A stretch of 64,000 nucleotides of DNA from the IMG/VR virus record IMGVR_UViG_3300046059_000013. One strand, 5' to 3'. The number at the start of each line of letters is the position of its first letter. The stretch's first letter is position 1. Positions 6,387-53,601 of this stretch are shown here, piece by piece. The notes beneath the pieces are model-generated. The model was not told the origin of the DNA and ran no database searches. It saw only the letters and a program-made list of their open reading frames with translations. The translations under genes were made by a program, and so were the position numbers. The DNA comes from a virus.

Positions 6387-6597
6387 CCTAGGGGAGTAAA
6401 TTCGGGAAACGTTGATATGGTGGAGGGTGCTTTGTTCGCTGAGCGGGATGCCCCCGGGCCGGGGGTCTCTGTAAAGAAGTTCCCGGTTTCCAACACCCTC
6501 CCGCAGGGTGGAACCCGACACCAGGCCGCAAGGCCGGTCGGAGAAAGCCCCACCCCCGAACATGGGGAGAAGGTCACCACACAGGGCTTATGAAGGA
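6387..6597 (+). ncRNA. Candidate stand-alone TnpB omegaRNA / non-autonomous IS605 derivative
   Basis: 6545-6577 AAGCCCCACCC..TGGGGAGAAGGTCAC matches the right end at 53357-53390. Hairpin-rich non-coding gap with an upstream GAAACGTTGATA promoter-like motif. The left boundary is a guess. Confidence 0.55.
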
Positions 6598-21426: not shown

Positions 21427-21535
21427 CTCGCTCTCGGTGACTCATTCTATCAGAGCGGAATAAAAAGGGAGCGAACCAGTCTGGCCCGGGCCTAGCTGTT
21501 TCGCCGCTTCTTCCGTGGGTTCAACCCCTAGTGGG

Positions 21536-21570
21536 GGAACCATACGGCTTTAGCCGTGGGAGGATGTCAG
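21536..21570 (+). mobile_element. Orphan IS605-type right end (hairpin + GGGAGGATGTCAG)
   Basis: 30/35 identical to the reverse complement of 43602-43636, with a compensatory stem change. Confidence 0.7.
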
Positions 21571-42190: not shown

Positions 42191-43582
42191 GTGGCTTCCT
42201 CCCCGGCCTTCACGCCGGGGCTTCCTTGTTCATTCACGAGCACCAACCCCCTGAGTGGGTTTGCAACCTCTCGTGTCCAAAGGCGTTGATTCCCCACAGC
42301 CCGTGGGTACTGGTTCGTCGTTGACTTCAAGTTTCTTGATGCCCCGTTGCCGAATCTCACGCGCCGCGTTCTGGTCGCGACCCATCGTGAGCCCGCACTC
42401 AGGGCAATCATGCTCGCGCTGCGACAACGGTTTCGGGCTCCGATGCCCGCACCGGTGACAATCGCTCGTCGTGTGCTTGGCGTTCACGCGGACAAGATGT
42501 CCGCCGTGCTCTTCAAGCTTGTACTCCAAGAACCGGAACAGGGTCCCCCACGCGGCATCATGCACGCTTTGGGCGCGGGAGCCTTGGGTGAGTCCCGTGA
42601 GGTTGTCCTCGACGGCGACCACCTGGTACTCCTCGGCCAGGTACCGTGCGACCTTGTGAAGGTAGTCCCTGCGCTGGTTCTTGATTGTGCGATGCAGTTT
42701 GGCAACCTGTTCGCGTTGCTTGTGCCAATTGTTGCTGCCTTGTTCCTTGCGGGACAAGTGTCGTTGTTCTCTCTGAAGCTTCTGCAAGGACTGTTCGAGG
42801 TGACGAGGGTTGGGAATCGTGTCCCCGTTGCTGAGGGTTAACAACTCCGTGAGGCCCGCGTCCACGCCCATCACGCCGCCTTCGGCCTGGGGCTTGGCGA
42901 GGTTCTCCTCGGGCACGTCGAAGGTGATCAATGCCCACCAGTCGCCGTGTCGGTCTTCTTTTACCGTGCATGTTTTTGCCTTGCAGTTTTCATCCAGCCA
43001 CGGCGGCTTGTCCTCGTGGAACGCTCGAACCCATCCAAGCTTGGACAAGTACACCTCGCCATCCCGGTACTTAAACGAGCCGTGTCCACTATTCCGGGAT
43101 TGGGGATACGTCATCGAGCGGTACGCTGCGCGTCCCTTGTAGCGCGGGTACTCGTGGTTGGTGTCGGGGTTGAAGAAGTTCTGGAAGGCTCGGTCCAGGC
43201 GCTTCACCACGTTTTGCAAGACCTGCGCGGGCGGGTCCTGAAACCGTGGATGGTCCTGCTTGAATTGAACCAATTGGGCCTGTTGCTCGGTTTTGGAGAT
43301 GCTTTCTCCGTACTCTTTCCACAGGAGTTCTCGATGTTCAAGGCACAAGTTGTACAGTGTCCGACATAGGCACAGCGTCCAGCCCAACTCCTCCTGCTGG
43401 TCTTGCGAAGGGTACAATCGGAGTTTTAGGGTGCGTTTGGGCATTGGGCGTCGTGCGGATATACGCAAGGGGGTTGTGGGGTTTGGGTCTTTTGGTCAGA
43501 GTGTGCGTGGTGCCATGCTCCTTGTTCCGACCCCTTCGATTCATCCCCAACCTAAAGAACAGGAACCCTTTTGACGGAAGAG
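42191..43582 (-). mobile_element. IS605-family element, tnpB only (IS-1)
   Basis: Right end CCCCGGC..GCCGGGGAGGAAGCCAC. Left end TTAA|CTCTTCC...TTTAGGTTGGGGATGAATCG resembles the left end of IS-3. Confidence 0.75.
42230..43444 (-). CDS. tnpB: TnpB RNA-guided nuclease
   Basis: RuvC D (GVDAG), E (AVED), D (RDQNAA); CxxC zinc ribbon. Confidence 0.95.
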   Translation of the reverse strand: MPKRTLKLRLYPSQDQQEELGWTLCLCRTLYNLCLEHRELLWKEYGESISKTEQQAQLVQFKQDHPRFQDPPAQVLQNVVKRLDRAFQNFFNPDTNHEYPRYKGRAAYRSMTYPQSRNSGHGSFKYRDGEVYLSKLGWVRAFHEDKPPWLDENCKAKTCTVKEDRHGDWWALITFDVPEENLAKPQAEGGVMGVDAGLTELLTLSNGDTIPNPRHLEQSLQKLQREQRHLSRKEQGSNNWHKQREQVAKLHRTIKNQRRDYLHKVARYLAEEYQVVAVEDNLTGLTQGSRAQSVHDAAWGTLFRFLEYKLEEHGGHLVRVNAKHTTSDCHRCGHRSPKPLSQREHDCPECGLTMGRDQNAAREIRQRGIKKLEVNDEPVPTGCGESTPLDTRGCKPTQGVGARE

Positions 43583-43800
43583 TTAAACCCATCGCCCCGA
43601 ACTGACATCCTCCCACGACTTAAGTCGTGGGGTTCCACGGTCACAGACCGTGCCCCCGACTCCGGCAGGTTCCCGTCGTCGGCGGTTTCCTTGGCGGCTT
43701 CAAGTTCTTGCTCGGCGGCTTGAACGTGTTCGAGAGCTTCCTCGTTCACGCTCCCGGGCCTTTGGTGAAGACGTGTTGCTCGTCGCAACGAGGACACCAC
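43552..43800 (-). CDS. Small protein whose C-terminus runs through the orphan right end
   Basis: Helical N-terminus, then EPHDLSRGRMS (typical tnpB-end translation). Confidence 0.45.
   Translation of the reverse strand: MVSSLRRATRLHQRPGSVNEEALEHVQAAEQELEAAKETADDGNLPESGARSVTVEPHDLSRGRMSVRGDGFNSSVKRVPVL
43602..43636 (-). mobile_element. Orphan IS605-type right end
   Basis: GGAACCCCACGAC-TTAA-GTCGTGGGAGGATGTCAG with no tnpB upstream. Confidence 0.75.
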
Positions 43801-48531: not shown

Positions 48532-49850
48532 GTAAACTACCCGTCCCGAGCTTGAGCGGGCTCGGAACGGGCTTTGCCTGTGTTCTCCCCCTCTAACGAC
48601 GCATCATGAGTGGCGTCGCACGAGAAACACTCGTTCGGGGTCATCGTTCCAGACGTTAAGGCCAGTTTACCGTGGCCCGTGCCCACGGACGACTTTTGGT
48701 CCATGGACACAAGGTACTTGTACCCGATTGACTTAGCAGCGTTGTAGTCCCGGTCGTTCTCGTACCCGCACGCCTGGCACGAAAACCAACGGTCCTCAAG
48801 GTTCTCTTTGCTGGTGTGCCCGCACCGGCTGCACGTGCGCGAAGTGTTCACGGGGTTCACCTGTTCAACCTGGATACCCAAGGCTTGGGCTTTGTACTCT
48901 ACGTACTCCACGAGTTGCCGGAACGCCCACTCGTGGTAGCGTTTCCCGCCTTGCAATTGGTCGCGGATGTTCGTGAGGTCCTCGAACGCGATTACGTCCA
49001 CGCCTTGCTCGGCGGCGTGGTCTACAAGGCGTCGGCTCACCACGTGCAGGTGGTGTTGGTTCCAGCGGGCCTCGCGACTGCTTAAGCGTTCAAGGGTGCA
49101 GTGGGCGCTTTGCGTGCCTGTTTGTTGGAGGCTGGCGCGCGTTTTCTCGTATTCTTCCCTGCGGTGGTTCAGCGGGCCGCCGGTGTGGAAGTGGGCGGTG
49201 CTGGTGGTGGCGAGGTTTTCGATGCCGAGGTCCACGCCCAAGACCGTGGGGTGTTGGGGCGTCTCTGCATCGGTTGTCTCGCGCTTCATGACGACGTGCA
49301 GCCACCAGTCGCCGTCCCGGTGGTGCAGCGTGGCGCCACCAGGCTCGTAGTCCTCGCTTAACAGGTAGTCGCCGTGCGGGGTTCCTTCGGGTTTGTTGGA
49401 GAGGTGGAGTTGGGCTTGGATTCTTCCGTTTGTGGTGGCTAGGCTTACTGTTTTGTTTTGGAGTTGAATTGTGTAGCAGCGTTGGTCGTAGTTCACGGTT
49501 GCACTCGTGAACCTGGGCTTGCCGGGGTTGTGGCCTTGGCGGCGGCGTTCCACGCAAGCTTTGAGGGCTTCTGCCGCTGCGCTGCGAGCCTGTGTCACGT
49601 GGTTGGCGTGGAGGTCTGAGCTGGTTTTGATGGGGTGGTAGGTGGCGTCGTGGAGTTCCGACTCGCGTGCCTCCAGGTTGCTGTTGTCGTTCCAGCCTTC
49701 GTCCACGACGCGGTTTGCTGCCGCTCGGTACTGGTCCAGCGTGTCCCAGAGGTCGTCTTTGGCGTCGCTGGGGACGGTGAGTCGGATTCGGACGGTGCGA
49801 CGTGTCTCTGCCACCAGAACACTCATGGTGGTGGGCCTACATGGTTCCTT
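48532..49850 (-). mobile_element. IS1341-type element (IS-2); left end not resolved
   Basis: Right end AAAGCCCGTTCCGAGC...GCTCGGGACGGGTAGTTTAC. Confidence 0.7.
48537..49826 (-). CDS. tnpB: TnpB, haloarchaeal IS1341 type
   Basis: RRTVRIRL start; GVDLG, FEDL, DRDYNAA; CSRC..CQAC. Confidence 0.95.
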   Translation of the reverse strand: MSVLVAETRRTVRIRLTVPSDAKDDLWDTLDQYRAAANRVVDEGWNDNSNLEARESELHDATYHPIKTSSDLHANHVTQARSAAAEALKACVERRRQGHNPGKPRFTSATVNYDQRCYTIQLQNKTVSLATTNGRIQAQLHLSNKPEGTPHGDYLLSEDYEPGGATLHHRDGDWWLHVVMKRETTDAETPQHPTVLGVDLGIENLATTSTAHFHTGGPLNHRREEYEKTRASLQQTGTQSAHCTLERLSSREARWNQHHLHVVSRRLVDHAAEQGVDVIAFEDLTNIRDQLQGGKRYHEWAFRQLVEYVEYKAQALGIQVEQVNPVNTSRTCSRCGHTSKENLEDRWFSCQACGYENDRDYNAAKSIGYKYLVSMDQKSSVGTGHGKLALTSGTMTPNECFSCDATHDASLEGENTGKARSEPAQARDG

Positions 49851-49911
49851 TGGCCGATTCCTCTCCGACCCAACCCTAGCGGGTTGGGAAAGAGTTTCCT
49901 CGGCCGATAAG

Positions 49912-50457
49912 ATGAGCAACATGGAGAGACTTGTAGCACTCGACCTTGAAACCGGCGGCCTTGACCCCTCCGAGCACTCCATCATCGAAATAGCTGCGTA
50001 CCATCCCGAGAGCGGGGAAACGATACAGCGCCTTGTCCGCAACGAAACGTACCATGTCACGGACCAGGCGATGGACGTGCATGGATACAAGATTCGCGAC
50101 CTCGCCAGCGCAAACTACGTCGGCATCGTGGACGAGGAAGTAAAGAATTGGCTCGACGAAACCGTTGACGGGAACGCCATCGCGGTAGGAATGAACGTTT
50201 ACTTTGATTTGGCTTGTTTGGGGGAGCACATGCCGCAAACGGCGAGCAGGTTCAGCCATCGCACGCTGGATGTTACTTCCCTTCAGTTCTTCCGAGATTG
50301 TTGTAGAGGCCAGCGTCTTGGAGCATCCGCAAGCTACTTCAAGAATCACGTCTTCGAGGACGAATACACGCACTCGGCGCTTGACGACGCGAAGGTCGCG
50401 TGGAAGGTTGTCGAAGCACTCATCAGCGACGTTGACAAAGAGGTGTTTCCATCGTGA
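49912..50457 (+). CDS. DEDDh 3'-5' exonuclease
   Basis: ALDLETGG, NVYFD, HSALDD. Confidence 0.9.
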   Translation: MSNMERLVALDLETGGLDPSEHSIIEIAAYHPESGETIQRLVRNETYHVTDQAMDVHGYKIRDLASANYVGIVDEEVKNWLDETVDGNAIAVGMNVYFDLACLGEHMPQTASRFSHRTLDVTSLQFFRDCCRGQRLGASASYFKNHVFEDEYTHSALDDAKVAWKVVEALISDVDKEVFPS

Positions 50458-51146: not shown

Positions 51147-51524
51147 ATGGAAATCGAAGTCGTCCTCAAATTTCCCGGGAACGAAGTGTCTTTCGACACG
51201 CGAACCGTAGCCATCTGCGACAACCTCAAGGAAATGGAGTTGTTTCTCGACAAACTCCAAAACGGGAAAATACGGCACAGCTCAACGGACTGGCAACTCA
51301 CCGGCGAGTCCTATTGGCGGACAATCGCTGACAAGGAACGTGCAAGAGTGCAACTTTCAGTCGCTAAGGGCGACAAGGTCGCCATCAACGTGCCTCGGGA
51401 CAGTCTGGTCGGCGCCGAGAACGCTCTCCGAACTATCCTAAACCAGGAGCAACTGCCTGCCCTTTCCAACGAGAAGCACCTTGAAACCGTCCTCGACGCT
51501 TTGCAAGAGGAGGACCCCCGGTGA
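51147..51524 (+). CDS. Hypothetical protein
   Basis: ORF downstream of a promoter-like motif. Confidence 0.65.
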   Translation: MEIEVVLKFPGNEVSFDTRTVAICDNLKEMELFLDKLQNGKIRHSSTDWQLTGESYWRTIADKERARVQLSVAKGDKVAINVPRDSLVGAENALRTILNQEQLPALSNEKHLETVLDALQEEDPR

Positions 51525-51734
51525 GCGAGAACGAGGGATTCGTGCCTACGTTGACGCTTGCGTGCCAGTCGTTTGGTTGCGAGGAGGAGACGCGCGTGAC
51601 GGATGCGCTCGAGGAGGCCACGTGGCGCTGTCCCGAACACATTAGCTTCTCCTGCGCGAAGCCCCCGCCCTTCAGGGTGGGGATGAAGCGCCCAAACACC
51701 TATACGTACAAGGGTCTTTCCATGCGGCAGAGCC

Positions 51735-52139
51735 GTGGACTACGATACGAAGTCGGGAAGCCACTCCATCTACGCTCTCCAGTACCACCTCGTGTGGTGC
51801 ACCAAGTATAGGGAACTCCTGATGCTTCCCGAGGCCCGGGATGCCCTGAAGGAGAAGATCCACGATCTGTTTGAACAGTCTGGCATAGACATCCTCAACA
51901 TTGAGGCGGATGCCGACCACGTGCACGTTCTCTTCCGAGGAACGCCGACGGTGACGCTGTCCCGGGTCGTCAACAAGATGAAGGGGGCCACGAGCAAACA
52001 CCTTCGGTCGCAGTTCCCAGAGCTGGGTGCAAGGGATCACCTCTGGAGTCCTGCCTACTTCCTAGCTACGACGGGGCAGGTCACGCTGGACCGGTTGATG
52101 GAGTATGTGGACGAGCACGCCGAGGAGCGTGAAGCCTAG
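51735..52139 (+). CDS. tnpA: TnpA Y1 HUH transposase
   Basis: YHLVWCTKYR, DHVHVL, LWSPAYF. Confidence 0.95.
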   Translation: MDYDTKSGSHSIYALQYHLVWCTKYRELLMLPEARDALKEKIHDLFEQSGIDILNIEADADHVHVLFRGTPTVTLSRVVNKMKGATSKHLRSQFPELGARDHLWSPAYFLATTGQVTLDRLMEYVDEHAEEREA

Positions 52140-53350
52140 TGCCCATGCGCACCCTAGAACTCCGGTTGTATCCGTCCCAGGACCAGCACGAGGCGATGGG
52201 GCAAACGCTGGGCTTGTGTCGGATGCTCTACAATCTCTGCAAGGAGCACCGCGAACTCGCCTACCGGGAGTACGGGGAGAGCGTGTCCTGGTATGAGCAG
52301 AAGCGACAGTTGGTTCAACTCAAGAAGGACCACCCTATGTTCCAGGACGTGCATAGCCAAGTGCTCCAGAATGTGACCGAGCGCGTGGACACCGCGTTCC
52401 AGGCGTTCTTCGACGGTCGCAACGACTACCCAAACTGGAAGAGCCGCAGCGACTACCGCTCCTTCACGTACCCGCAGGAGGGCGGGTTCCGGTACCAGGA
52501 TGGCGAAGTGTACCTGTCGAAGATTGGGTGGGTGCGAGCCTTCCACGAAGACAAACCACCCTGGTACGACCCCGACACCTGCACACCCAAGACCTGCACG
52601 GTGCGCGAGGAACGGTTCGGGGACTGGTGGGCAAGCATCACGTTCGACGTGCCCGAGGAGAATGTGGTGCGTGAGCCCGCGGACCCGGGCCTCGTGGGCC
52701 TCGACGCGGGCCTCACCACGCTGGCCACGTTGAGCGATGGCACCAAGATCACGAATCCACGCCACCTCAAGGAGTCCCAGGAACGCCTCGCCAAGGCGCG
52801 ACGGGACCTGTCACGCAAAGAACGAGGAAGCAACAACTGGCATAAGCAGAGGCAGCGCGTAGCGAAGCTCGAACGCAGGGCCGCCCGCAAACGTCAAGAC
52901 CACTTGCACAAGGTGTCTCGACACCTGGCCGAGTCCTACACGTGCGTCGCCGTCGAGGGAAACCTAGCGGGACTCACCCAATCAGAGGACCACGCCCAAG
53001 CCGTTCACGACGCCGCCTGGGGCACCCTGTTCGAGTTCCTGGAGTACAAGCTCGATGAACACGGAGGCCGGCTCGTTCGCCTAGAGGGCGAGAATCAGGC
53101 CTACAGCACCAAGGACTGTAGTGAGTGCGGGTACCGCAACCACGATTTGTCCTTGGAGGACCGATCATGGACCTGCCCCGACTGCGGGGCAATGCACGAT
53201 CGGGACATCAACGCGGCCAGGAACCTAGAGCAACGCGCACGCACCAAGCTCCAAGACGAAGGAACCGACGTACCCATGGACCGTGGGGAATCAACGCCTT
53301 TGGACACGAGAGGTTGCAAACCCACTCAGGGGGTTGGTGCTCGTGAATGA
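52139..53350 (+). CDS. tnpB: TnpB RNA-guided nuclease
   Basis: GLDAG, AVEG, RDINAA; CSEC..CPDC. Confidence 0.95.
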   Translation: MPMRTLELRLYPSQDQHEAMGQTLGLCRMLYNLCKEHRELAYREYGESVSWYEQKRQLVQLKKDHPMFQDVHSQVLQNVTERVDTAFQAFFDGRNDYPNWKSRSDYRSFTYPQEGGFRYQDGEVYLSKIGWVRAFHEDKPPWYDPDTCTPKTCTVREERFGDWWASITFDVPEENVVREPADPGLVGLDAGLTTLATLSDGTKITNPRHLKESQERLAKARRDLSRKERGSNNWHKQRQRVAKLERRAARKRQDHLHKVSRHLAESYTCVAVEGNLAGLTQSEDHAQAVHDAAWGTLFEFLEYKLDEHGGRLVRLEGENQAYSTKDCSECGYRNHDLSLEDRSWTCPDCGAMHDRDINAARNLEQRARTKLQDEGTDVPMDRGESTPLDTRGCKPTQGVGARE

Positions 53351-53601
53351 ACAAGGAAGCCCCACCCTTCTAGGGTGGGGAGGAGGTCACCGAGTTTGTT
53401 CCTGCTCCGGGCACGAGCAAGGCCGAAAGGCTGGGTTGCAAGTGTGAGCGCGTGGAAGGCGTGGCGAATGGGCCTCTCTTTGTTGCTTTGGGTTGCAAGA
53501 TGCATTCGAGTCAAGCTGAAGATTGACTTCTTCTCCGGTCTCTTCTTACGGGTCGGAGAGACCCGCAAAGTTGATGCATTAACAACCGCCTGGCAACAAG
53601 G

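Follow-up and report, generated by a model that had tools for sequence, protein, structure and literature searches.

An IS200/IS605 insertion sequence in a tailed virus genome, with a predicted TAM and guide for its TnpB

RESULTS

Genes of the inserted element

We analyzed a stretch of 64,000 nucleotides (the window) from the virus record IMGVR_UViG_3300046059_000013, part of a 91-kb contig with a GC content of ~59%. The tailed virus genes present encode a baseplate J protein, a tail sheath, a tape measure protein, a prohead protease, and a family B polymerase with an intein. The ORF of this family B DNA polymerase (301-2706, + strand) matched the Pfam families PT-HINT, Hint_2, and Intein_splicing. 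An IS200/IS605 element lies between the two parts of an apparently split small viral gene, and the features assigned to the element and to this gene are listed in Table 1.

Table 1. Features of the insertion sequence and of the gene that it appears to split (window coordinates)
Feature	Coordinates	Strand	Remarks
5' part of split small viral gene	51521-51645	+	GTG start, 41 codons plus 2 nt
TTAG, left TnpA cleavage/target site (CL) and predicted TnpB TAM	51642-51645	+	17 nt 5' of left hairpin foot
IS200/IS605 element	51646-53390	+	1,745 bp; from genes, ends, and alignments of relatives
Left DNA guide (GL), AAGC	51659-51662	+	4 nt 5' of left hairpin
Left subterminal imperfect palindrome	51663-51682	+	8-bp stem with G.T mismatch, loop TTCA
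tnpA, Y1 HUH transposase, 134 aa	51735-52139	+	Pfam Y1_Tnp, E 1.4e-33
tnpB, RNA-guided nuclease, 403 aa	52139-53350	+	Pfam OrfB_IS605, Cas12f1-like TNB, and HTH domains
omegaRNA scaffold	53250-53390	+	Overlaps tnpB 3' end and right end; covariance model 150.9 bits
Right DNA guide (GR), GAAG	53356-53359	+	4 nt 5' of right hairpin
Right subterminal palindrome	53360-53380	+	8-bp stem, loop TTCTA; covarying stem pairs in relatives
TCAC, right cleavage site (CR)/transposon-encoded motif	53387-53390	+	Last 4 nt of element, 10 nt 3' of hairpin
Predicted omegaRNA guide, first 16-20 nt of right flank, CGAGTTTGTTCCTGCTCC	53391-53408	+	IS605 TnpB position rule (PMC8612924; 10.1101/2023.03.14.532601)
Putative 3' part of split gene	53391-53526	+	1 nt plus 44 codons plus TGA; in frame after excision

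Both tnpA and tnpB are intact ORFs. The best solved relatives of TnpA in the PDB were the TnpA proteins of ISDra2 (phmmer, 1e-24) and IS608 (4e-19), and its HUH motif (HVH, DHVHVL) and C-terminal tyrosine align with those of ISDra2 TnpA. For TnpB, the best natural structure matches were those of ISDra2 TnpB (E 1.5e-46). The RuvC residues D189, E273, and D356 were invariant in an alignment with seven to eight relatives, as were the zinc-finger residues C327, C330, C346, and C349. No target duplication was found, the flanks CATTAG and CGAGTT not being repeats.

As far as sequence can tell, every IS200/IS605 feature that can be read from it is present, and the element is probably a complete autonomous insertion sequence of the IS608/ISDra2 type. 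The clean IS605 insertion of the original prediction was thus reproduced, with TTAG and the element at the positions in Table 1, both genes recognized by Pfam, and the boundaries backed by relatives.

Ends of the element and pairing of DNA guides with cleavage sites

Right ends (the last 220 nt plus flank) were aligned for six elements, namely the studied element, another TnpB element of the window (42191-43468, - strand), and elements on four contigs with TnpBs at 54-66% identity. Similarity ended exactly after ...GGTCAC, the six-element consensus being ...AGGARGYCAC, with none thereafter. Ten metagenome contigs, from AT-rich genomes, had only the last ~36 nt in common and likewise diverged directly after GGTCAC. 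The ends are well beyond chance expectation, the full right-end 35-mer occurring once in the window against zero expected occurrences. At the left end, four elements (IS-1, IS-2, L001, and L003) share a layout in which an invariant TTA and one base that differs among them are followed by a C present in all, 16 more nt, the hairpin, and then ATGAA; their upstream DNA is unrelated. From the end positions given by these alignments, the element therefore extends over the interval in Table 1, with TTAG at its left and CGAGTTTG at its right.

The left and right hairpins are direct repeats, on the same strand, with 79% identity over 29 nt. To judge from these copies, the arrangement is the signature of IS200/IS605 elements and not that of an inverted-repeat transposon. 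In IS608, a spacing of 19 nt separates TTAC from the left hairpin on its 3' side, and one of 10 nt separates the right hairpin from TCAA (PMC3201880); these cleavage sites pair with the four bases 5' of the hairpins (AAAG/TTAC and GAAT/TCAA; PMC5934647). Under the IS608 pairing scheme, the corresponding pairs of the studied element, AAGC/TTAG and GAAG/TCAC, retain all canonical pairs. The fourth target base varies among relatives because the last GL base covaries with it, the pair being G-C in the studied element, T-A in L001, and A-T in L003. This covariation gives independent support for TTAG as the TnpA target of the studied element.

A mini-element in the contig L093 misfits the 17-nt spacing rule and was set aside as a more distant family. 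In the contigs L086 to L095, the right-end terminus of ~36 nt (GR, hairpin, and AGGAGGTCAC) is nearly identical, and these contigs have nothing else in common with the studied element; the TnpA recognition module thus seems far more conserved than the rest.

omegaRNA scaffold and predicted guide

The consensus fold that six sequences gave for the 140 nt preceding the right end has 34 pairs in three helices, with compensatory changes at 12 of the 34. Folded as a single sequence, the omegaRNA was no more stable than its shuffles (z -0.74), and no Rfam family matched the omegaRNA region. Within the window, a covariance model built from the six-element alignment picked up both full elements, as well as three orphan right ends.

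The use of the target motif as TAM and of the right flank as guide has been published for other IS605 elements (Karvelis 2021, PMC8612924; Meers 2023 preprint, 10.1101/2023.03.14.532601). By analogy, and by the position rule established for the TnpBs of ISDra2 and ISGst, the TnpB described here is predicted to use TTAG as its TAM and the right flank (CGAGTTTGTTCC...) as its guide. These predictions are well founded because the ends, the IS608-type pairing, and the omegaRNA fold agree. They also bear out the TAM (TTAG) and the guide starting with CGAGTTTG of the original prediction, as predictions that now have firmer support than originally, from the family boundary alignments, the IS608-type complementarity of guides and cleavage sites, and the covarying omegaRNA fold. 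The predicted guide sequence has no second copy in the window.

TnpB might in fact read a longer TAM (ATTAG) or a looser one (TTAN). In close relatives, TnpBs that are ~65% identical adjoin TTAT and TTAA, and this set could therefore show a joint change of TnpA target choice and TnpB TAM reading. TCAC and TTAG differ at two of four positions; in ISGst2, the TAM and the transposon-encoded motif likewise differ at two positions (10.1101/2023.03.14.532601).

We considered the right flank as a remnant of an older IS or omegaRNA and rejected this candidate: BLAST gave only exact words of 7-11 nt, and the omegaRNA covariance model had no match in the right flank of the studied element. The 8-mer GGTTGCAA occurs both in the split gene, within its 3' half, and in the omegaRNA scaffold, and no wider similarity was found.

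The interrupted gene and excision in silico

The GTG start of the split gene overlaps the stop codon of the upstream gene (GTGA) and is preceded by a purine-rich stretch, GAGGAGGA. The codon score of the 5' part (+0.19 per codon) and its GC3 (0.78) are gene-like. In the Atlas search, which uses a protein language model, this part had protein-like features, and its nearest neighbors, to be taken as a lead only, were small viral proteins. The 5' part looks like a real gene.

Joining the 5' and 3' parts in silico gave ...CACATTAG/CGAGTTTGTTCC... (the slash marks the joint; in short form, ...CACATTAG/CGAGTTTG...) and an 86-aa frame with PGTSKAERLGCKC. The joint, the frame, and the motif that excision had been expected to restore were all recovered. 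The frame is not significant on its own, since 43% of positions taken at random from the window begin an open frame of at least 45 codons; the restored frame is a consistency check that by itself proves little. The 3' half is neutral: its codon score (-0.15 per codon) and GC3 (0.55) fall between the two distributions, coding and non-coding, the likelihood ratio being ~1, and its Atlas "recognition" was low and without matches. No homologues of the 3' half were found among the longer proteins searched. A full HMMER scan of 1.8 billion representatives returned a single match (P0122), which was rejected as a spurious, repeat-derived artifact. GGGTTGCAAG occurs twice in the 3' half (53433-53442 and 53490-53499, + strand) and encodes LGCK each time.

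The 86-aa frame may accordingly differ from the ancestral product, the 3' half being non-coding or drifted and its frame open by chance, as the frequency of open frames in the window, the coding measures of the 3' half, and its lack of real homologues would allow. We hold this to be a minority reading, although one to be taken seriously. The ends are fixed to the base, and hence the frame across the joint is no free choice; the 5' half resembles a real gene; and after the stop codon a hairpin and a 75-nt spacer precede the next gene, which fits the local gene packing.

Searches for an empty site, a related virus, and a host copy

The original prediction held that the empty allele can be read directly. 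The junction does follow from the sequence, but solely as a product of excision in silico. The proposed check for IS-free alleles in metagenomes gave none, a degenerate donor-joint pattern having no match in IMG/VR or in the metagenome contigs. The upstream gene had no relatives in IMG/VR and matched only itself in a set of 5.8 billion proteins. Two larger neighboring genes likewise had no relatives in IMG/VR, and 3.2 kb of DNA compared with phage records had no nucleotide relative. The virus lineage is simply unsampled.

Alignment of TnpB with species genomes gave one close relative, at 65% identity, in a Thermoplasmata MAG from soda-lake sediment; all others were at most 40% identical. A host copy of the studied IS was not found in these genomes by TnpB alignment. 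From this Thermoplasmata relative of TnpB, the virus probably infects an archaeon of saline sediments.

Other TnpB genes and right ends in the window

A second, TnpB-only element (42191-43590, - strand) encodes a TnpB with 61% identity to that of the studied element and has a right end that closes in AGGAAGCCAC. At its left end, TTAA and the 17 nt are kept, and the hairpin is degenerate. About 80 nt of the omegaRNA scaffold are letter-identical between this element and the studied one, whereas the proteins differ. A third TnpB (48537-50090, - strand; 517 aa, ~29% identical), with OrfB_IS605 and TNB domains, is encoded on the strand opposite to the interrupted gene, at a distance of 1.4 kb upstream of it.

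Right-end/omegaRNA-like units without tnpB were recognized by the covariance model at 43602-43727 (- strand, 32.7 bits), 6430-6577 (+ strand, 17.0 bits), and 21460-21570 (+ strand, 15.9 bits). Two of these three close in AGGATGTCAG, which marks a different subfamily. The orphan units may be mini-elements that are mobilized in trans.

DISCUSSION

Proposed life cycle and role of the element

We take the published IS605 life cycle to be the best explanation of the element. We put the probability of this explanation as a whole, including completeness and autonomy of the IS, at roughly 75%. Insertion would have occurred by single-strand "peel-and-paste" transposition, directly 3' of TTAG in a small gene of the tailed virus. 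As in other members of the family, TnpA would excise the top strand precisely and leave a scarless donor joint, TTAG/CGAGTTTG..., and TnpB would take up an omegaRNA with its last 16-20 nt transcribed from the right flank. TnpB would then cut every viral genome copy with the donor joint, that is, the TAM TTAG and the target. The occupied site would escape cutting because TCAC stands in place of the TAM. Recombination with an IS-bearing genome would then restore the element. In a virus with many copies per cell, the system would be a device for retention and fixation first; in mixed infection, conversion of or damage to an IS-free relative would be a further effect.

Targeting of the donor joint has been published (10.1101/2023.03.14.532601), as has a TnpB gene drive in multicopy plasmids, by which an IS spreads through plasmid populations (PMC11870625). 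HpyTnpB of IS608 was inactive in a published interference assay (10.1101/2023.03.14.532601), and an intact sequence is thus no guarantee of cleavage.

That some natural TnpBs, such as HpyTnpB, are inactive in assays also bears on a different reading, in which the element is an inert passenger: structurally complete, host-derived, and fixed in the lineage, with TnpB and omegaRNA silent or inactive and the guide without a natural target. In favor of this reading, other close relatives are TnpB-only elements, and the collections searched yielded neither an IS-free allele nor any relative of the genes that flank the element. Both ORFs are intact, however, with all catalytic residues present, and so are both hairpins and the guide/cleavage-site pairings, features that are soon lost when selection is absent (cf. 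IS-2, with its degenerate left end). We therefore think an inert passenger improbable.

Sister-virus cutting during co-infection, as in the original prediction, seems a legitimate extension of the model published for donor joints and for gene drive in plasmids. The main selective value of the element would then lie in mixed infection, where TnpB would cut the intact gene of IS-free relatives, resulting in homing or exclusion. This follows from the donor-joint model, since any IS-free genome with TTAG and the 16-20-nt target would serve as substrate. Homing endonucleases of phages act in this way, as does an intron endonuclease (PMC13565253), TnpB drives an IS through plasmid populations, and there are three TnpBs in the window, along with several orphan right ends. 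Against this stand the lack of any known sister virus and of homologues of even the neighboring genes, which leaves no sign that such targets exist. Homing by TnpB between viruses was, moreover, not reported in the literature searched, and retention already accounts for the anatomy of the element. A main role as a weapon between viruses is rather unlikely in our judgment. Retention after TnpA excision, within one pool of replicating genomes, would be the simpler published role.

A bolder form of the extension is an RNA-guided gene drive between viruses, in which TnpB would cut TTAG/CGAGTTTG... and either copy the IS with flanking markers into a competitor or destroy the competitor, the three TnpBs and the orphan right ends forming a set of guides. 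We regard such a drive as speculative and as unlikely.

Comparison with known systems

The element resembles characterized systems in several respects. It shares with IS608 of Helicobacter pylori the order of tnpA and then tnpB in one orientation, top-strand imperfect palindromes in subterminal position, insertion 3' of TTAN without duplication, a right cleavage site 10 nt 3' of the hairpin, and 4-nt DNA guides that pair in the same pattern (PMC3201880, PMC5934647). It differs from IS608 in having TTAG instead of TTAC, TCAC instead of TCAA, and a spacing of 17 instead of 19 nt, and the TnpA match is moderate. ISDra2 of Deinococcus radiodurans (PDB 2xm3, 8exa, and 8h1j) provides the best structure matches for TnpA and natural TnpB and likewise has an omegaRNA overlapping both the 3' end of tnpB and the right end, its guide being derived from the flank (PMC8612924). 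The ISDra2 TAM is TTGAT, however, its gene arrangement is another, and the omegaRNA described here has no Rfam match.

An IS200-type tnpA with an intact IS1341-type tnpB is also present in a tailed archaeal virus, the halovirus PhiH1, as ISH1.8 (= ISH12; PMC6210493). ISH1.8 exactly matches a host IS and mediates L-region rearrangement in PhiH1, whereas no host copy of the element studied here is known, and ISH1.8 has no nucleotide similarity to the window. The functional model adopted here comes from the ISGst elements of Geobacillus stearothermophilus and the plasmid TnpB drive: TnpB cuts a scarless donor joint made up of the TAM and the right flank, the TAM and the transposon-encoded motif differ at two positions, and the IS is driven through multicopy replicons (10.1101/2023.03.14.532601; PMC11870625). 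Those systems reside on bacterial chromosomes and plasmids and have experimental proof; the one described here is in a virus genome and is known from sequence evidence only. TnpB-like genes were found in 218 phage records. IS200/IS605 elements in viruses are thus already documented, by PhiH1 and by these phage genes, and no new mechanism is revealed here.

The interest of the element lies in the assignment to the base of each cis element of an IS605-type transposon, from the target/TAM, DNA guides, and hairpins to the right cleavage site, omegaRNA scaffold, and guide. The source lineage, a tailed virus that is probably archaeal and from saline sediments, is without an experimental TnpB system, and the TAM and guide predicted here are offered as a concrete pair for testing.

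The tetranucleotide TTAG occurs 107 times in the window, against 142 occurrences expected from trinucleotides (ratio 0.76), and is thus somewhat rarer than expected, while TTAT is commoner (ratio 1.42); these figures are counts only.
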